DNA of 4,826 nt from a virus (taxonomy: Duplodnaviria; Heunggongvirae; Uroviricota; Caudoviricetes), in the IMG/VR virus record IMGVR_UViG_2713896787_000012; one strand, given 5' to 3'. The position numbers and the translations under genes were made by a program. Of the stretch, positions 1 to 4,826 are shown piece by piece. The notes below the pieces were generated by a model. It made no database searches. It was not told the origin of the DNA and saw nothing but the letters and a program-made list of their open reading frames with translations. Numbering within the stretch: the stretch's first letter is position 1; the number at the start of each line of letters is the position of its first letter.

Positions 1-15
1 GGTGAAAGTGAACCA

Positions 16-552
16 GTGTCACCGGTACCGAAAGTGACAGCGCAAATGCTGACTGAGGCGATTGAACAACATGGCCCACAAACGGCGGATGAGCTGGCAC
101 TGATGTTCGGGATTACCTCCCGCCGGGCGAATTCATCGCTGGCCATGGCAATCAGCAAAGGGCGTCTGATTCGCGTGAATCAGGGCGGTAAATTTCGTTA
201 CTGCATACCGGGCGCTGATTTACCGGCAGAGCCGGAAGCTGCATCCGTAGCGGAAACCGATGGTAAAGCCTTTCCTCAGCCAGCAGGTGTTGCGTTACCA
301 GTCCAGGAAACGACGACACAGGAAGAAATGAAAACAGAAATCGTGGAAGACATTGTGAAGTTACAGCCATCGGTCACCGAAACGAAAGCAGATGACCTGA
401 TTCTACCATCGCTGCATGTGGCTAACCGCGAGCTGCGCCGGGTAAAAGGTCAGGTTCAGAAGTGGGAGCGAGTCTGCGCCGCGCTGCGGGAGCTGAACAA
501 GTGCCGGGATATTCTCCGGGATATTACCGCCACCAGAGAACAGCAGCGGTGA
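16..552 (+). CDS. Prophage hypothetical protein (178 aa from GTG 16) with an N-terminal winged-helix-like domain, an acidic Thr/Glu/Pro-rich linker and a basic C-terminal helix; possibly 5'-truncated by the window edge
   Basis: Long ORF with coherent protein-like composition; stop TGA at 550-552. The frame is open back to position 1 and no convincing SD precedes GTG 16 or ATG 46, so the true start may be upstream. N-terminal segment [10 protein letters not shown]...ELALMFGI...GRLIRV looks like an HTH/winged-helix fold. Confidence 0.6.
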
Positions 553-584
553 GTGGGTGGAAGACGTGGTGCCGGGCGGAAATC

Positions 585-866
585 ATGATACTCCGGCAGT
601 GTGCGGGAACGATGAAGGTAAAAAGCGTTGGCGCACTTATCGGACGAACTGAAGCGGCAGTGAGAACGAAGGCACGGGAGCTGGGCATCAGCATGATGTT
701 ACGTGGTGATTTTCACCCGTCGGCAAAATATTCTCAGCGTGATATTGAGCTGGCGCGGCAACTGCATCAGAGAGGCATGCAAAGAAGGGAAATTGCCAGA
801 AAATTAGGCATGCCGCTGCGCATAGTGAATAACTACGTTTATTTCGACAGGAGGGTGTCTGCGTGA
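585..866 (+). CDS. Small putative DNA-binding protein (93 aa) with two HTH-like segments
   Basis: ORF-track entry 462-866 trimmed to the first in-frame ATG after the upstream stop (ATG 585; alternative ATG 612). The 462-584 extension overlaps the upstream gene in another frame and is R/G-rich. Motifs SVGALIGRTEAAVRTKARELGI and REIARKLGMPLRIVNNYV resemble HTH recognition helices. Stop TGA at 864-866 overlaps the next start. Confidence 0.5.
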   Translation: MILRQCAGTMKVKSVGALIGRTEAAVRTKARELGISMMLRGDFHPSAKYSQRDIELARQLHQRGMQRREIARKLGMPLRIVNNYVYFDRRVSA

Positions 867-1090
867 AAATCCTGTATCAGGATTACGGCCCGGTGGGGCA
901 GGTGGTTATCAGCAGTACTGTAATGGAGTTTCGGAAGCATAACCGTGTGGTGGATGCTGTGCTGTTAACCTGTCCGGGGATATCGGCGAGTCGTGCAGGT
1001 GTGTTTATTATGAAGACGAAATTATATGGCAGTAAGGCGTGGATAAAGAAGGCGTATCGTGTAGCGTTGCAGGAGGTTAACAGTGAGTAA
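863..1090 (+). CDS. Hypothetical phage protein (75 aa)
   Basis: GTG start at 863 overlaps the upstream stop (GTGA) and is preceded by a strong SD, AGGAGGG at 849-855 with 7 nt spacing. Stop TAA at 1088-1090. Confidence 0.5.
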   Translation: MKILYQDYGPVGQVVISSTVMEFRKHNRVVDAVLLTCPGISASRAGVFIMKTKLYGSKAWIKKAYRVALQEVNSE

Positions 1091-1418
1091 AATTAAAGAA
1101 ATGCCGGTAGTTCGTGACGGATATGGCTACTGGACACATCCTGAATATGAAAAATTCTGTGATGGTCGGGAATATATTTCAACGGAAGAGTTTAACGCCT
1201 GGATGGAGGAAAATAATCTTCAATANNNNNNNNNNNNNNNNNNNNNNNNNNNNNNNNNNNNNNNNNNNNNNNNNNGTGCTGACCTTGATGCGTGTGATGC
1301 TGATATTTCTGCATGGGAACCGGAACGACCAGAGGGCGATGGCTGGTTTATTGGTTCCATTCATGATACGGAAGATGGCCCGGTTTGTGTCTGGTTGCGA
1401 AATAAGGCTGAAGCATAA
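1083..1418 (+). CDS. Hypothetical phage protein (about 111 aa), interrupted by a 50-nt N run
   Basis: GTG 1083 is preceded by AGGAGG at 1071-1076 (6 nt spacing) and overlaps the upstream gene by 8 nt. Protein-like sequence on both sides of the gap (MSKIKEMPVVRDGYGYWTHPEY... / ...WEPERPEGDGWFIGSIHDTEDGPVCVW). Frame continuity across the Ns is assumed, not proven. Confidence 0.55.
   Translation: MSKIKEMPVVRDGYGYWTHPEYEKFCDGREYISTEEFNAWMEENNLQXXXXXXXXXXXXXXXXXXADLDACDADISAWEPERPEGDGWFIGSIHDTEDGPVCVWLRNKAEA
1226..1275. other. Run of 50 N (masked or unsequenced bases) inside CDS 1083-1418
   Basis: Directly visible in the sequence. Confidence 0.99.
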
Positions 1419-1517
1419 AGGCGATAAACCAACTAACAACTAAATACTGAAGATTTAAATCAGAAACGATTTTTATTAAATCCTTAACCGGAGGGATTCC
1501 TGCACCCTCAGAACATC

Positions 1518-1540
1518 AGGAGGCCGCCCGAAAGGGCGGT
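1518..1540 (+). promoter_or_regulatory. Structured ribosome-binding region: SD AGGAGG (1518-1523) followed by a GC stem with GAAA loop (1523-1540), just upstream of ATG 1546
   Basis: Stem ccgccc (1524-1529) pairs with gggcgg (1534-1539) around loop gaaa. The hairpin sits between a strong SD and the start codon, so folding would bring the SD to about 5 nt from the ATG. No U-tract follows, so it is not a terminator. Confidence 0.35.
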
Positions 1541-1545
1541 AAGAA

Positions 1546-1764
1546 ATGAAACATTATTTAGAAAAAAATTACCCACGAAAGAGCAGAACAACAGAGTTTC
1601 TGTTTTTCATTCTGTTTATAGTGTTGATGATACCGATATCCCCGCTATTACTGGTCTGGATAATTGGAAGGACATTTGAACCAGTTATTGAGCTATATAC
1701 CGATGTGACATGGGAATCATTCAGCGCACTGCACAATAAAATTAATCCGTATAAGGAAAACTGA
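1546..1764 (+). CDS. Small membrane protein (72 aa, one predicted transmembrane helix), AT-rich; likely horizontally acquired cargo
   Basis: ATG 1546, stop TGA 1762-1764. Hydrophobic stretch FLFFILFIVLMIPISPLLLVWIIG. Codon usage is AT-rich with rare codons (ata, aga, agg, cta), unlike flanking genes. Stop lies 1 nt before the next ATG. Confidence 0.45.
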   Translation: MKHYLEKNYPRKSRTTEFLFFILFIVLMIPISPLLLVWIIGRTFEPVIELYTDVTWESFSALHNKINPYKEN

Positions 1765-1765
1765 T

Positions 1766-2323
1766 ATGAGCACTATTACCAGAGAACGCGCGGAGATTAA
1801 ATCATACATCACAGGCTTCCTGAGCGACTCGGCGCACGATAACAAGTCTTCAGACAGCCTGCTGGCTAATGTGTTTCGTATCGCGCTGGCATCACTGGAA
1901 GCAGAGCCGATAGCAATGGTAGTGCCTGATGAAATGGATTTGCTTACCTGCCATCTCGACGGTGTAACTAAAACATATGCTGATGGCTGGAACGCCTGCC
2001 GCGTCGCCATGCTTCAGGCCGGAAACTTTCGGGAAAATAAGAATTCGTCAACCAACAATTTTCGGGAAATCTCGGAAACGTCAACCAGATCTCCGATAAC
2101 TCTGGATGGCTGGATAAGCTGTACTGAGCGAATGCCTGAAAAGAGCCAGAACGTGCTTATTTCGATGAATATCGATAGCGAGGCTGGGCCATTAATATAT
2201 TCCGCACGCTATCTCGGAGGCACGTTCCGGCGCGGAGGTATAGCAGTTAGTCCGGGTAATGATCTTAGGCAAGCAACCCACTGGATGTCGCTACCAGAAC
2301 CGCCGCAGGAGGTGAATCAATGA
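1766..2323 (+). CDS. DUF551-like phage protein (185 aa)
   Basis: SD AAGGA at 1753-1757, ATG 1766. C-terminal region (WISCTERMPE ... THWMSLPEPP) matches my recollection of the conserved DUF551 C-terminal signature common in lambdoid nin regions. Confidence 0.7.
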   Translation: MSTITRERAEIKSYITGFLSDSAHDNKSSDSLLANVFRIALASLEAEPIAMVVPDEMDLLTCHLDGVTKTYADGWNACRVAMLQAGNFRENKNSSTNNFREISETSTRSPITLDGWISCTERMPEKSQNVLISMNIDSEAGPLIYSARYLGGTFRRGGIAVSPGNDLRQATHWMSLPEPPQEVNQ

Positions 2324-2403
2324 CCTGGCCTGAAGCATTCACAACGGTAGGAATTGCGATGGCGGTGGCGCTGGTGGAGTATTCGATTTGCCGCTGGGGA
2401 TAA
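2320..2403 (+). CDS. Candidate micro-protein (27 aa, hydrophobic): MTWPEAFTTVGIAMAVALVEYSICRWG
   Basis: ATG 2320 overlaps the upstream stop (ATGA) and is preceded by AGGAGG at 2307-2312 with 7 nt spacing. Too short for the ORF track. Ends TAA 2401-2403, immediately before the hok promoter. Confidence 0.35.
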   Translation: MTWPEAFTTVGIAMAVALVEYSICRWG

Positions 2404-2410
2404 AAACGGT

Positions 2411-2438
2411 TTGCGGGAAAAGGATAGTTAAGTAGAAT
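2411..2438 (+). promoter_or_regulatory. Putative sigma70 promoter of the hok mRNA (-35 TTGCGG 2411-2416, 16-nt spacer, -10 TAGAAT 2433-2438)
   Basis: Hexamers and spacing read directly. The predicted +1 (about 2445) coincides with a GGGTGCTTGAGGC motif resembling the 5' end of plasmid R1 hok mRNA (GGCGCTTGAGGC, from memory). Confidence 0.5.
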
Positions 2439-2492
2439 TGCAGCGGGTGCTTGAGGCTATCTGCCTCGGGCATGAACACCAACGGCAGATAG

Positions 2493-2566
2493 AGAAAAGC
2501 CCCAGTTAACATTACGCGTCCTGCAAGACGCTTAACATTAATCTGAGGCTCAATCCATGCTGAACA
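2493..2566 (-). ncRNA. sok: Sok-like antisense RNA (type I antitoxin), about 70 nt, complementary to the hok leader and mok translation-initiation region
   Basis: Minus-strand promoter lies just to the right; the transcript would start near 2565 and run leftward across the mok ATG (2557). It ends in an imperfect hairpin (gcgtc/gacgc core at 2515-2530 flanked by 9-bp ttaacatta repeats) followed on the minus strand by ttttctc (2498-2492). Ends are approximate. Confidence 0.5.
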
Positions 2567-2799
2567 CATGTAGGTTAGCCTCTTACGTGCCGAAAGGCAA
2601 GGAGAAGCAGGCTATGAAGCAGCAAANNNNNNNNNNNNNNNNNNNNNNNNNNNNNNNNNNNNNNNNNNNNNNNNNNATCGTCATCTGTTTAACCGTCATA
2701 GTGACGGCACTGGTAACGAGGAAAGACCTCTGCGAGGTGCGAATCCGAACCGGTCAGACGGAGGTCGCTGTCTTCGTAGACTACGAATCTGAGAAGTAA
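2557..2799 (+). CDS. mok: Mok-like leader reading frame, in frame with and containing hok (arrangement as in chromosomal mokC/hokC)
   Basis: ATG 2557; N-terminus MLNTCRLASYVPKGKEKQA resembles the MokC N-terminus (MLNTCRVPLTDRKVKEKRA, from memory) and reads straight into the hok start MKQQ. Confidence 0.55.
   Translation: MLNTCRLASYVPKGKEKQAMKQQXXXXXXXXXXXXXXXXXIVICLTVIVTALVTRKDLCEVRIRTGQTEVAVFVDYESEK
2572..2600 (-). promoter_or_regulatory. Putative sok promoter on the minus strand (-35 TTGCCT, 17-nt spacer, -10 TAACCT)
   Basis: Reverse complement of 2595-2600 (aggcaa) gives TTGCCT and of 2572-2577 (aggtta) gives TAACCT, with a 17-nt spacer. Position matches the R1 sok promoter embedded antisense in the mok 5' region. 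Confidence 0.5.
2614..2799 (+). CDS. hok: Hok/Gef-family type I toxin (small membrane toxin); N-terminal/transmembrane part masked by 50 N
   Basis: After the gap: IVICLTVIVTALVTRKDLCEVRIRTGQTEVAVFVDYESEK, nearly identical in pattern to the HokC/Gef core (ALVTRKDLCEVHIRTGQTEVAVFTAYESE, from memory). ATG 2614 (MKQQ) is preceded by AAGGAGAAG. Stop TAA 2797-2799. Apparent length of 61 aa depends on the true gap size. Confidence 0.85.
   Translation: MKQQXXXXXXXXXXXXXXXXXIVICLTVIVTALVTRKDLCEVRIRTGQTEVAVFVDYESEK
2627..2676. other. Run of 50 N inside hok/mok
   Basis: Directly visible in the sequence; covers the hok N-terminal/transmembrane coding part. Confidence 0.99.
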
Positions 2800-2806
2800 G
2801 AGACCA

Positions 2807-2861
2807 GGCGGGGGAGTAATCTCCCGCCACCTCTGATGTGTCAGGCATCCTCAACGCACCC
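2807..2861 (+). promoter_or_regulatory. hok mRNA 3' region: stem-loop (2807-2828) plus fold-back element (2849-2861) complementary to the mRNA 5' end
   Basis: ggcgggggag / taat / ctcccgcc hairpin with no U-tract, then cctcaacgcaccc complementary to 2445-2456. Consistent with the fbi/tac pairing that keeps full-length hok mRNA translationally inert. Confidence 0.5.
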
Positions 2862-2918
2862 GCGCTTTACCATACTGAAAATGCTGTTTGAATGTTCATC
2901 TCTGAAAGAGGACTATGA

Positions 2919-3263
2919 ATGAAAAAGGTATTGATTGCAGCACTTATTTCCGGTGTGTCTTTTGGCGCTTTTGCACAGCAGGGTGGTTTCCAGGGGCCAG
3001 AAGCAGAGCGTTCAACAGTAGCGCAGGCAAAAGAACTGAAGGATGATGCATGGGTTATCCTTGAAGGGAGCATCGTTAAAAAAGTGGGTGATGAACGTTA
3101 TGAGTTTCGTGACAATAGCGGGACAATTGTCACGGATATTGATGACAGCGTATGGGCCGGGCAGAATGTTTCTCCGAAAGACAAAGTAAGAATTGAGGGT
3201 GAAATTGATAAAGACCTGAGCAGTGTTGAAGTTGATGTAAAGGCACTGAAATTATTAAAGTAA
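2919..3263 (+). CDS. YgiW/YdeI (BOF, DUF388) family secreted OB-fold protein (114 aa) with Sec signal peptide
   Basis: SD AAGAGGA at 2906-2912, ATG 2919. Signal peptide MKKVLIAALISGVSFGAFA followed by QQ. Body (WVILEGSIVKKVGDERYEFRDNSGTIVTDIDDSVW...VRIEGEIDKD...VEVDVK) matches the YgiW/YdeI family pattern as I recall it. Own terminator downstream. Confidence 0.85.
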   Translation: MKKVLIAALISGVSFGAFAQQGGFQGPEAERSTVAQAKELKDDAWVILEGSIVKKVGDERYEFRDNSGTIVTDIDDSVWAGQNVSPKDKVRIEGEIDKDLSSVEVDVKALKLLK

Positions 3264-3281
3264 CCGCCCCTGCTTGTTAAG

Positions 3282-3308
3282 CCCGTCTTACTGACGGGTT
3301 TTCTGTTT
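3282..3308 (+). terminator. Rho-independent terminator after the YgiW-like gene
   Basis: Stem cccgtc (3282-3287) / gacggg (3293-3298) with loop ttact, followed by ttttctgttt. Confidence 0.7.
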
Positions 3309-3335
3309 GTACATTCCGGCGTATTGCCTTACAAT
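3307..3335 (+). promoter_or_regulatory. Weak candidate promoter for the downstream genes (-35 TTGTAC 3307-3312, 17-nt spacer, -10 TACAAT 3330-3335)
   Basis: Hexamer match only; it sits between the terminator and the next CDS. Confidence 0.3.
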
Positions 3336-3384
3336 TCGCGCAGTCAGCCTGAACAACTGACACCTGCTGTCACCGGAGAATCCG

Positions 3385-3657
3385 ATGACACAACACATAA
3401 AATCCCACAATTCTGAAGCCGACCCGGAAATTAAGCAGGGGAGGCGTTTTCGTGCGCCTCAGTATGGCTGGTTTCACTATCTGTTCTGTACGATCGATGA
3501 GGCAGATATGCTTCAAGAGGCGTATCTGCGTCGCGGTGTCCGTGTGGAGCGGAGTCTGAACGCTGATCGTCTGACCTGGACCGTTTCTGTATATCTTCCT
3601 GTTCGTGCACATCTGCCACGGACACATGCCTGCTACCGTCAGCGCGTCTGGAGGTAA
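3385..3657 (+). CDS. Hypothetical small protein (90 aa), translationally coupled to the downstream YdfU-like gene; occupies the position of rem in the E. coli Qin prophage
   Basis: Good SD (GGAG, about 6 nt spacing) before ATG 3385. Stop TAA 3655-3657 lies inside the junction TAATGTG, where GTG 3659 starts the next gene. Homology to Rem is not established. Confidence 0.5.
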   Translation: MTQHIKSHNSEADPEIKQGRRFRAPQYGWFHYLFCTIDEADMLQEAYLRRGVRVERSLNADRLTWTVSVYLPVRAHLPRTHACYRQRVWR

Positions 3658-3658
3658 T

Positions 3659-4708
3659 GTGCGGGTATTACTTCGACCTGTTCTGGTTCCGGAACTCGGG
3701 CTGGTGGTCCTTAAGCCCGGTCGTGAATCATTGCCAGTTTTTCATCGCGGCAGGGTGCTGGTGGAGCCGGAACCGAAAAACATGCGGGCGCTGCCATCTG
3801 GAGCGGTTCCTGCTGTTCGCCAGCCGCTGGCGGAAGATAAATCACTGCTGCCATTTTTCAGCGATGAGCGGGTGATTCGTGCAGCTGGCGGCGCTGGTGC
3901 ACTGTCTGACTGGTTATTACGTCACGTGAAATCCTGCCAGTGGCCACACGGCGATTATCATCACAGCGAAACCGTTATTCACAGTTACGGTGCTGGCGCA
4001 ATGGTGTTGTGCTGGCACTGCGACAACCAGCTGCGCGACCAGACCTCCGAATCACTTGAGCAACTTACTCAACAAAATCTGACAGCCTGGATGATTGACG
4101 TCATACGCCATGTAATGAATGGCACGCAGGAGCGGGAATTATCGCTGGCTGAATTATCCTGGTGGGCAGTCTGCAATCAGGTGGTGGACGCATTACCTGA
4201 GGCAGTATCGCGTCGTTCTCTGGGATTACCGGCGGAAAAAATCCGCTCCGTATACCGTGAAAGCGACATCATACCGGGAGAACAGACCGCCACCAGCATA
4301 CTGAAGCAGCGCACAAAAAATATTGCGCTACCGCCTCACACCCACCAGCAACAGAACCCACCACAGGAAAAGACGGTGGTCAGCATTGCCGTTGATCCGG
4401 AGTCTCCGGAATCCTTCATGAAACGACCTAAACGTCGCCGCTGGGTAAATGAGAAATACACACGCTGGGTAAAGACACAGCCGTGTGCGTGTTGTGGTAA
4501 GCCAGCGGACGATCCTCATCATCTGATTGGTCATGGTCAGGGTGGAATGGGAACAAAATCCCACGATATTTTCACGCTACCGCTGTGTCGGGAGCATCAC
4601 AACGAGCTTCATGCGGATCCGCTGGCGTTCGAAGAAAAGCATGGTTCCCAGGTTGATTTAATTTTTCGTTTTCTTGATCACGCCTTTGCAACCGGCGTGC
4701 TCGGGTAA
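3659..4708 (+). CDS. YdfU-like DUF968 protein (349 aa) with a C-terminal Cys/His zinc-finger, HNH-like motif
   Basis: ORF-track entry 3605-4708 trimmed to GTG 3659, which is preceded by GGAGG (3650-3654) and directly follows the upstream stop. The resulting 349 aa matches the length I recall for E. coli YdfU. C-terminus CACCGKPADDPHHLIGHGQGGMGTKSHDIFTLPLCREHHNELH. Start could alternatively be ATG 3626 or GTG 3605. Confidence 0.7.
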   Translation: MRVLLRPVLVPELGLVVLKPGRESLPVFHRGRVLVEPEPKNMRALPSGAVPAVRQPLAEDKSLLPFFSDERVIRAAGGAGALSDWLLRHVKSCQWPHGDYHHSETVIHSYGAGAMVLCWHCDNQLRDQTSESLEQLTQQNLTAWMIDVIRHVMNGTQERELSLAELSWWAVCNQVVDALPEAVSRRSLGLPAEKIRSVYRESDIIPGEQTATSILKQRTKNIALPPHTHQQQNPPQEKTVVSIAVDPESPESFMKRPKRRRWVNEKYTRWVKTQPCACCGKPADDPHHLIGHGQGGMGTKSHDIFTLPLCREHHNELHADPLAFEEKHGSQVDLIFRFLDHAFATGVLG

Positions 4709-4720
4709 AAGAGGTTACTG

Positions 4721-4826
4721 ATGCGTATAGAGTTTGTTTTGCCTTACCCGCCGACGGTGAACACCTACTGGCGACGTCGTGGCAGCACATATTTTGTATC
4801 AAAAGCCGGTGAGCGTTATCGCCGGG
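4721..4826 (+). CDS. rusA: RusA-like Holliday junction resolvase, 5' part only (continues past the window end)
   Basis: SD AAGAGG at 4709-4714, ATG 4721. N-terminus MRIEFVLPYPPTVNTYWRRRGSTYFVSKAGERYRR matches the RusA N-terminal pattern (ITLPWPPSNNRYYR...VSAEGQAYR, from memory). Confidence 0.75.
   Translation, partial: MRIEFVLPYPPTVNTYWRRRGSTYFVSKAGERYRR

Follow-up and report, generated by a model that had tools for sequence, protein, structure and literature searches.

A small-protein gene joined to a YdfU-like (DUF968) gene with an HNH-type nuclease fold in an Escherichia coli lambdoid prophage

The window analysed in this study is a stretch of 4,826 nucleotides (nt) from the IMG/VR virus record IMGVR_UViG_2713896787_000012 (Caudoviricetes), and its subject is a pair of adjacent genes, a small gene encoding a protein of 90 amino acids (aa) and a YdfU-like gene encoding a 349-aa protein of the DUF968 family. 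Coordinates are window positions (1-4826) on the + strand, on which both genes, their features and the following RusA gene lie, and residues of the large protein are counted from the GTG at 3659. The small gene occupies positions 3385-3657 (ATG 3385, TAA 3655-3657). It is annotated by the NCBI Prokaryotic Genome Annotation Pipeline (PGAP) as 'hypothetical protein' WP_000191872.1, belongs to PHROG 1212 and is preceded by a Shine-Dalgarno-like GGAG (3374-3377), recognised from the sequence, with a spacer of 7 nt to the ATG. The YdfU-like gene extends from 3659 to 4708 (TAA 4706-4708) and corresponds to the DUF968 domain-containing protein WP_001265229.1. The junction between the two genes reads ctGGAGGTAATGTGcgg: the small gene terminates with TGG-AGG-TAA, and the GTG that opens the 349-aa open reading frame (ORF) follows one base further on. 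Thus, the heptamer TAATGTG (3655-3661) consists of the stop codon, a single spacer base and the start codon GTG (3659-3661), and the GGAGG Shine-Dalgarno sequence of the nuclease gene (3650-3654) lies inside the last two sense codons of the small gene, TGG AGG (W89 R90). A preliminary description of the window, made from its sequence alone, had pointed out this arrangement of the 90-aa ORF, its stop codon, the GGAGG and the GTG, and all coordinates were confirmed in the sequence. The gene for the RusA Holliday-junction resolvase, annotated by PGAP as RusA family crossover junction endodeoxyribonuclease, begins 12 nt past the YdfU stop and runs off the window (4721-4826).

Bases 3300-4826 were 99.9% identical to prophages of E. 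coli O145:H28, O157:H7, O26, O111 and O121 strains, and among 5426 complete E. coli genomes, 4465 contained a match to some part of this interval. The window belongs to a lambdoid prophage of E. coli of the enterohaemorrhagic type. In NZ_CP007133 the genes annotated by PGAP follow each other in the order DUF1627, DNA-binding protein, DUF4014, DUF551, Hok/Gef, NirD/YgiW/YdeI (BOF) protein, small gene, DUF968 gene, RusA, DUF1133, tRNAs and lysis genes.

The start codon of the YdfU-like gene was assessed in 80 loci of YdfU relatives (47-92% identity), drawn from a collection with one genome per species. ATG, GTG or TTG was found at the position homologous to 3659 in 79 of these 80 loci, and many of them carried an in-frame stop codon 0-12 nt 5' of it, so that no longer form is possible there. 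In cluster representatives at 38-52% identity, residues 1-347 aligned to residues 1-348 of the window protein. DNA similarity to ydfU of E. coli K-12 (83% identity) starts at 3647, 12 nt before the GTG. Judged by these comparisons, the start is GTG 3659 and the protein has 349 aa, in agreement with the current K-12 and PGAP annotation. The alternative starts at 3605 (GTG) and 3626 (ATG) were rejected because of the conservation of the start in 79 of 80 loci, the stop codons just 5' of it in many of them and the K-12 similarity limit at 3647. The ORF opening with ATG 3657 (72 aa) and two antisense ORFs (3370-3627 and 3431-3625) were unsupported and were treated as spurious. The preliminary description had named 3659 as the true start, which these loci bear out. 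It had also described the start as split across three frames (3605, 3657 and 3659), of which the separate frame of ATG 3657 stands; 3605, 3626 and 3659 share one frame, and the number of frames is two. Its expectation that automated annotation would mis-start the gene did not hold for RefSeq, where PGAP currently places the start at 3659. Older records are longer; a note in the record of phage P1 gives YdfU (P76162) as 362 aa. Some database entries, with 352-393 aa, are longer as well, and the one inspected, the 393-aa entry (P0002), contains an internal duplication and not a 5' extension.

The large protein matched Pfam DUF968 (PF06147) at aa 160-346 over all 171 profile positions, with E = 2.2e-77 and 259.4 bits against a gathering cut-off of 27.8. 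This hidden Markov model search upheld the earlier classification of the protein as YdfU-like. Moreover, phrog_96 ('HNH endonuclease') matched residues 1-348 with E = 2.6e-174. Pfam HNHc_6 (PF16784) matched aa 271-319 partially, with 21.9 bits, under its gathering cut-off of 26.6. The NCBIfam search of the large protein gave nothing, PADLOC gave only a negligible match to PglZ (E = 0.0033), and the RecA_dep_nuc family of Ref (PF16786) was not found among Pfam matches at E ≤ 0.01, nor did the family profile match the sequence of 3plw. In total, 3083 cluster representatives matched the large protein at E ≤ 1e-3. Full-length homologues occur in the phages SfV, SfII, SfIV, ST64B, cdtI, mEp390 and phiNP and in Klebsiella, Yersinia, Morganella and Vibrio phages, the most distant of them being PdcB of P1 with 26% identity. 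Neither of the two ORFs is due to chance, since both belong to large conserved protein families.

An AlphaFold2 model of the large protein was built from 34 diverse homologues and reached a mean predicted local distance difference test (pLDDT) score of 87.4. It consists of an N-terminal region (aa 1-225), a disordered linker (aa 226-242) and a C-terminal domain (aa 243-349). The N-terminal region comprises a domain specific to the YdfU/PdcB family (aa 1-159; 3659-4135), modelled with pLDDT 82-96, and a helical middle region (aa 160-225; 4136-4333), with which the DUF968 match starts. Positions 1-60 of the DUF968 profile correspond to aa 160-220; helices were predicted at 163-172, 181-188 and 211-221, and the conserved motif is LS..EL.WWA. 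The linker (4334-4384) has pLDDT < 50 and is poorly conserved, its alignment being gapped and variable.

The C-terminal domain (4385-4705) carries the Cys/His string C276, C278, C279, H287, H288, H292, C310, H313, H314 and H318. The preliminary description had read this string as the CxxC...HH...H...C..HH..H motif of an HNH fold; the residues were confirmed, and structure prediction gave a His-Me finger. In the model, strands 285-288 and 306-309 and helix 311-319 form the beta-beta-alpha-metal core. The HNH core (4484-4612) contains a zinc knuckle (C276/C279 and C310/H314), the H287-H288 pair, D303 and H318. Strand 1 ends with H288, the putative general base; D303 takes the place of the 'N', and the helix carries H318 as a putative metal ligand. 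In the alignment of the 34 homologues (24-81% identity), C276, D303, P308 and G329 were invariant, and H288 was conserved in at least 90%. The second Cys of CxxC and the Cys of 'PLC'/LC(R) were lost together in one subclade, as expected of a zinc site. In three of the 34 homologues the HH pair is missing together with the final His, and these are, judged from the losses, probably inactive; the catalytic His and the metal ligands are kept in the other 31. The fold of the model, with a His at the end of strand 1, an Asp at the Asn/Asp position and a His on the helix, together with the conservation of the active-site residues, identifies the C-terminal domain as a genuine His-Me finger whose active-site signature is intact. 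The nuclease activity of the YdfU-like protein, as well as its substrate, we infer.

Residues 1-159 are conserved at full length across the family, down to P1 PdcB. The domain is covered by phrog_11007 at residues 2-135. It had no match at E ≤ 10, either in Pfam or, searched with a profile, among PDB sequences, and the Orf-like (RAGNYA) N-terminal domain of Gram-positive DUF968 proteins was undetectable in the window protein. It contains a second Cys/His cluster (C93, H97, H101, H102, C118, W119, H120, C121, D122 and N123; 3935-4027) with the consensus CQ..dG.YCh.....avRLCWHHDN; the 34 homologues all have C118, and each of C93, W119 and D122 is kept in at least 90% of them. In the model the cluster forms a beta-hairpin (105-110 / 113-118) followed by a helix (119-125), and it is probably a structural zinc site. 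Alignment of this domain with the C-terminal HNH domain by hhalign was in register and not significant (P 0.02-0.04, probability about 1%). A degenerate, duplicated HNH finger in the N-terminal domain is therefore only a lead.

The small protein matched phrog_1212 (function unknown) with E = 1.5e-34, its residues 26-90 corresponding to positions 2-66 of the 66 in the profile. No match was found in Pfam, NCBIfam or PADLOC, and neither the 90-aa form nor a 135-aa form of the protein matched Pfam, including the small nin families NinD, NinE and NinF. A word-seeded search from its single sequence retrieved only 10 clusters, and a profile of diverse members retrieved 494. In 47 sequences of 34-55% identity, W29, C35, A40, L43, Y47, L71, P72, R79 and W89 were invariant. 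This invariance across diverged sequences shows that the small ORF encodes a real protein under selection. Members of PHROG 1212 are found in prophages of Escherichia, Salmonella, Citrobacter, Cronobacter, Klebsiella, Kluyvera, Kosakonia and Enterobacter; most have 66-69 aa and start near residue 24-26 of the window protein. The N-terminal extension of 25 residues (aa 1-25; 3385-3459) occurs only in the Escherichia forms linked to YdfU, and its motif K-x-H-N-S-[DE]...G-R-R is common to the window form and the Qin-type forms of 90-92 aa. The model of the small protein (pLDDT 79.7) predicts a disordered extension (pLDDT 54-62), a conserved core of strand-helix-strand-strand (aa 26-73; 3460-3603) with pLDDT about 95, and a short C-terminal helix.

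A homologue of the small gene is also present in the Qin prophage of E. coli K-12 MG1655. There, rem and ydfU are separated by 346 bp, and this gap contains an intact ORF of 92 codons, NC_000913.3 complement(1644306..1644584), located at 4307-4585 on the minus strand of the K-12 locus, which is missing from the RefSeq feature table. Its product is a diverged homologue of the 90-aa protein (36% identical), it is preceded by the same ccGGAGaa..ccgATG arrangement, and it is joined to ydfU by the same TAA-n-GTG junction. In other genomes the identical protein is called 'hypothetical' or 'Prophage protein'. Rem (b1561, 83 aa), considered as the homologue of the 90-aa protein, was rejected since its sequence is unrelated; the comparison of the window with ydfU-rem of Qin, which the preliminary description had drawn, is thus replaced by one with the unannotated ORF. 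Upstream of ydfU, one of the strongest Rho-dependent terminators measured in K-12 has been reported, and it has been discussed as silencing toxic prophage genes (PMC9160355); the region with this terminator contains the unannotated small ORF. In addition, one NCBI contig of 420 kb encodes a 438-aa protein (P0039) in which a Qin-type small protein (to ...TFQQR) is fused in frame to a full-length YdfU (MRVLL...). This single, anecdotal sequence may have arisen by a natural deletion at the junction; otherwise it is an error of sequencing or assembly.

The neighbourhood of YdfU homologues was recorded in the 80 loci. The next gene 3' encodes a Q antiterminator in 77 of them, belonging to one of three Pfam families: Phage_antitermQ (PF06530, 51 loci), Antiterm (PF03589, 15) and Phage_antiter_Q (PF06323, 11). 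RusA follows directly, as in the window, in the remaining three, and it lies within 3 kb in 56. The place just 5' of RusA, which the preliminary description had held to be conserved, is therefore rare, and the conserved neighbour is Q. In P1, pdcB is located directly 5' of lpa, the late promoter activator gene (2405-3989 of the P1 locus). The 5' neighbours are more varied: Rha/KilAC antirepressors (25/80), RusA (11/80), the small-protein family (9/80), ORF6N/ANT proteins (8/80), cytosine methyltransferases (4/80) and, in the remainder, other genes including Dam-type methyltransferases. Neither NinG nor YbcO was found within 3 kb in any of the 80 loci. An ORF of 50 aa or more precedes the gene in 67 YdfU homologues; in 58 of these the two genes overlap or are at most 2 nt apart, and 44 of the 58 junctions are 4-nt overlaps (ATGA or GTGA). 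A tight junction is generic in YdfU operons, whatever the upstream gene.

The gene right after the small gene, scored in 79 IMG/VR loci, was YbcO-like in 53, NinG in 15 and RusA in two. In the other nine it encoded a Cys-rich protein of 143-148 aa without Pfam match, which stands in place of YbcO or NinG (at about 1700-2150 of the nine extracted loci) and has the motif CLFCGKP...CDAPMCAECG...CPLC. In Escherichia and Klebsiella loci the small gene is followed by the DUF968 gene. The typical order, DUF1367, small protein, YbcO or NinG, optionally RusA and YlcG, and Q, was found in Gifsy-2, mEp237, phiES15, GF-2, Klebsiella phages and genomic as well as metagenomic contigs. DUF1367 was present within 1.5 kb of the small gene in 79 of 80 IMG/VR loci, and in all loci with gene calls it was the gene immediately 5'. 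The N15-like phages PY54 and YDC107_1, in which the small gene adjoins exonuclease genes, depart from the typical order, as do Erwinia phage 59, with an inserted methyltransferase, and Hafnia Pocitis76, in which a 59-aa ORF intervenes. The junction before the YbcO, NinG and YdfU genes is stereotyped, either TGG-GGG-TGA-nn-ATG or, in the window and Qin types, TGG-AGG-TAA-n-GTG; consequently, the invariant C-terminal Trp codon and the following Gly or Arg codon double as the Shine-Dalgarno sequence of the nuclease gene.

DUF968, DUF1364 and NinG are all His-Me finger nuclease families (PMC5714182), and YdfU, YbcO and NinG were mutually exclusive in the loci examined. NinG loci had neither RusA nor YbcO within 1.5 kb (0/22), and 36 of 55 YbcO loci had RusA within the 1.5-kb flank. 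An alternation of Rap and RusA in nin regions is already known (PMC4118853). The mutual exclusivity and the RusA pattern, which fits this alternation, suggest one functional slot filled by non-orthologous nucleases.

In our preferred reading, to which we assign a probability of roughly 0.55, the large protein is a nuclease that depends on metal and works on recombination or replication intermediates of the phage in the delayed-early phase. Both genes would belong to the delayed-early (nin) region and be transcribed rightwards toward RusA and a Q-like antiterminator. As a DNA nuclease of the DUF968/DUF1364 group within the His-Me/HNH finger superfamily, the large protein would depend on metal and consist of two domains: the C-terminal one, with its Cys3His zinc knuckle and a beta-beta-alpha active site most like those of P1 Ref and YbcO, would carry out catalysis, and the family-specific N-terminal region with the second Cys/His cluster would presumably select the substrate. 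Its targets may be branched or single-stranded intermediates of phage DNA recombination and replication, which it would cut or nick before the late genes are expressed. It would fill the slot that NinG/Rap occupies in lambda-like phages, often with RusA close by. The small protein and the nuclease would be translated together by termination-reinitiation at TAATGTG. The stop and start codons (TAA-T-GTG) are a few nucleotides apart and the Shine-Dalgarno sequence lies within codons 89-90 of the upstream ORF, a layout compatible with the translational coupling proposed in the preliminary description. Because the last two codons of the small gene form the ribosome-binding site of the nuclease gene, the two genes are probably translated in a coupled manner; a physical or functional link between the two proteins would go beyond this. 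A more far-reaching proposal is that the PHROG 1212 protein is a dedicated, translationally coupled partner common to NinG/Rap, YbcO/DUF1364 and YdfU/DUF968, perhaps a specificity, loading or inhibitory subunit, that the nucleases are interchangeable in one recombination slot, with YbcO or YdfU plus RusA replacing Rap, and that the N-terminal domain of YdfU is a degenerate duplicated HNH finger for substrate recognition. We consider this proposal unlikely as a whole, though worth stating.

Several observations weigh against the nuclease reading or against a link between the two genes. Foldseek against the PDB gave nothing significant (best E = 0.9), although the top matches were HNH domains, and sequence profiles of the full family reached no solved structure at E ≤ 10. 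The searches of the N-terminal domain in Pfam and the PDB gave no hint of the substrate, and the fold search with the small protein returned no informative match. The most constant neighbour of YdfU is Q, which a role in recombination does not explain. The spacing of 4 nt between the Shine-Dalgarno sequence and the GTG is shorter than optimal, and the generic tightness of YdfU junctions makes that of the window less telling. The open-access literature searched held no experimental activity, substrate or phenotype for YdfU, PdcB or YbcO. In this respect the earlier remark that DUF968 lacks an assigned function stands; it does not stand for the fold, as the family was assigned to His-Me finger group 7 in 2017 (PMC5714182). 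Furthermore, the small gene is absent upstream in 71 of the 80 YdfU loci and is therefore not essential for the nuclease, so that the two genes, presented earlier as a module, are a facultative pair.

This last count favours the view that the two genes are functionally independent, and that their adjacency reflects inherited gene order and dense operon packing without any interaction of the small protein with YdfU. Other upstream genes show similar overlaps (58 of 67 junctions overlapping or at most 2 nt apart), and in PY54, YDC107_1, Erwinia phage 59 and Hafnia Pocitis76 the small gene does not stand beside a His-Me nuclease gene. Since DUF1367 is also near the small gene in nearly all IMG/VR loci, the association with the nucleases could likewise be an inherited order. 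However, in the window, Qin and Klebsiella types DUF1367 is gone and the small gene is still joined to the nuclease gene by the same junction, three non-orthologous nuclease families (YbcO, NinG and DUF968) follow the small gene, and the single P0039 fusion argues weakly in the same direction. Independence of the two genes is quite possible, although we do not favour it. A closer relationship is assumed if the small protein is a stoichiometric inhibitor or chaperone of a toxic HNH nuclease, comparable to colicin DNases and their Im proteins. HNH nucleases are in general often toxic and paired with inhibitors (PMC5714182), coupled translation would fix the ratio of the two proteins, and the strong Rho-dependent termination upstream of Qin ydfU has been discussed in terms of toxic genes (PMC9160355). 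Yet an immunity partner would be expected to accompany its nuclease, and most YdfU loci (71/80) lack it; the supposed inhibitor gene is located upstream rather than downstream, the small protein had no PADLOC match and YdfU only the negligible one to PglZ, the small-protein fold is unlike any known immunity protein, and one small protein would have to inhibit three nuclease families. Such a toxin/immunity-like pair is thus improbable.

Two other interpretations concern the large protein itself. HNH enzymes are common among homing and defence nucleases, the flanking genes of YdfU are mosaic, and a sigma-70-like match (3308-3335) after a hairpin (3279-3301) could allow expression in the lysogen, all of which would suit a selfish, free-standing homing endonuclease or a prophage defence or exclusion nuclease. 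Sporadic homing insertions, in contrast, would not be expected to keep a fixed place directly 5' of Q in 77 of 80 loci, with three Q families and in many genera, nor to be mutually exclusive with NinG and YbcO. Defence-system models gave only the PglZ match (E = 0.0033), and promoter-like matches were no commoner than in shuffled sequence (3 vs 2.0 ± 1.4). We hold a homing or defence function to be distinctly improbable. The same adjacency to Q, and to lpa in P1, could be taken as a sign that YdfU is a non-catalytic or regulatory DNA-binding protein of the late-gene switch (Q; Lpa in P1) that uses the HNH fold for binding only, and the loss of the HH pair and the final His in three homologues would agree with this. 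But the catalytic His and the metal ligands are kept in 31 of 34 diverse homologues, the position as the last nin gene before Q suffices to explain the adjacency, and the three Q families are mutually unrelated, which argues against a specific partnership; a purely regulatory role is very improbable.

The nuclease reading agrees with what has been published. Jablonska et al. (2017; PMC5714182) placed DUF968 and DUF1364 (YbcO, 3g27) in His-Me finger group 7, named YdfU, noted RusA and Q as its neighbours and proposed a role in recombination. For DUF1364, a treble-clef survey has put forward a function as nuclease (PMC4999995). The label 'HNH endonuclease' is already attached to PHROG 96 and to several phage records, and DUF968 domains have been reported as fusions to Erf, Rad52 and RusA (PMC4118853). 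The idea of a nuclease fold is thus right but already published, and both genes are already annotated and catalogued. What is new is the comparative proof of the start codon, the correction concerning Rem together with the unannotated K-12 ORF, the adjacency to Q whichever of the three Q families is present, the repeated association of a single small-protein family with His-Me nucleases of three families and the mutual exclusivity of those nucleases.

Further features were observed in the surroundings of the two genes. The DUF1133 protein 3' of RusA, just beyond the 3' end of the window (8790-9344 in the larger locus), matched Phage_antitermQ with 33.2 bits (cut-off 26) and is, by this match, probably the Q antiterminator of the prophage. 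A hok/sok locus lies at 2445-2799 of the window; Rfam sok (RF01794) matched 2445-2619 with 113.5 bits, and part of the Hok/Gef ORF (2557-2799) is hidden by an N run (2628-2676); another N run is located at 1226-1275. The BOF (YgiW/YdeI-type) gene (2919-3263) resembles a moron insertion directly upstream of the small gene; behind it lies a terminator-like hairpin (3279-3301) with a run of T. The sigma-70-like match 3' of this hairpin has the form TGTACA-16-TACAAT; as a promoter of its own for the two genes it was rejected on the comparison with shuffled sequence given above. Finally, the ORF at 1083-1418 of the window and ORF48 of PY54 (2741-3268 of the PY54 locus), the gene after the small-protein homologue in that phage, have the C-terminal motif P.GDGWF..SIHDTE.GPVC.WLR in common.

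YdfU-like genes are very common, with homologues in Stx, SfV, ST64B and P1 phages. If YdfU is a structure-specific nuclease that replaces Rap/NinG, a gap would be filled in the processing of recombination and replication intermediates before late expression in lambdoid phages, including Shiga-toxin phages, and a Ref-like nuclease might be added to the toolbox. Regardless of this, the start codon is firm, Rem is not the partner, and K-12 MG1655 contains an unannotated ORF of 92 codons. That a single small-protein family recurs beside nucleases of three families is a lead which can be tested cheaply; the rest is ordinary, catalogued prophage content.

Among known systems, the closest is YdfU of the K-12 Qin prophage (b1560). 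It has the same architecture and length as the window protein (349 aa), its DNA similarity to the window begins 12 nt 5' of the GTG (83% identity), and it is preceded by the same type of small ORF with the TAA-n-GTG junction. The two loci differ in the next gene, which is Q (ydfT) in Qin, whereas RusA intervenes in the window, and in the small proteins, which are only 36% identical. Ref of P1, a RecA-dependent HNH nuclease (PDB 3plw), is likewise a phage-encoded HNH enzyme and acts on recombination intermediates. However, its N-terminus is disordered and basic, whereas YdfU has a folded N-terminal region of 225 residues, and the likeness is structural only, with no match between the sequence families. 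P1 carries the YdfU homologue PdcB besides Ref. YbcO of DLP12 (DUF1364, PDB 3g27) belongs to the same His-Me group 7 and occupies the same genomic slot as YdfU (small protein, nuclease, RusA, Q), although the two never occurred together in the loci examined. It is a single domain of 96 aa without the N-terminal and middle regions of YdfU, and YdfU has no Pfam match to YbcO. NinG/Rap of lambda, a branch-specific endonuclease, is a His-Me finger nuclease of the nin region as well, mutually exclusive with both YdfU and YbcO; in prophages of Salmonella, Edwardsiella and Kosakonia its gene directly follows a gene of the same small-protein family. It shows no detectable sequence similarity to YdfU, and its loci lack RusA, whereas YdfU and YbcO loci usually contain it. 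Finally, Gram-positive DUF968 proteins such as Orf20 of phiETA, in which an Orf-like domain is fused to HNH (PMC4118853), share the Pfam family and the C-terminal HNH motif with the window protein.

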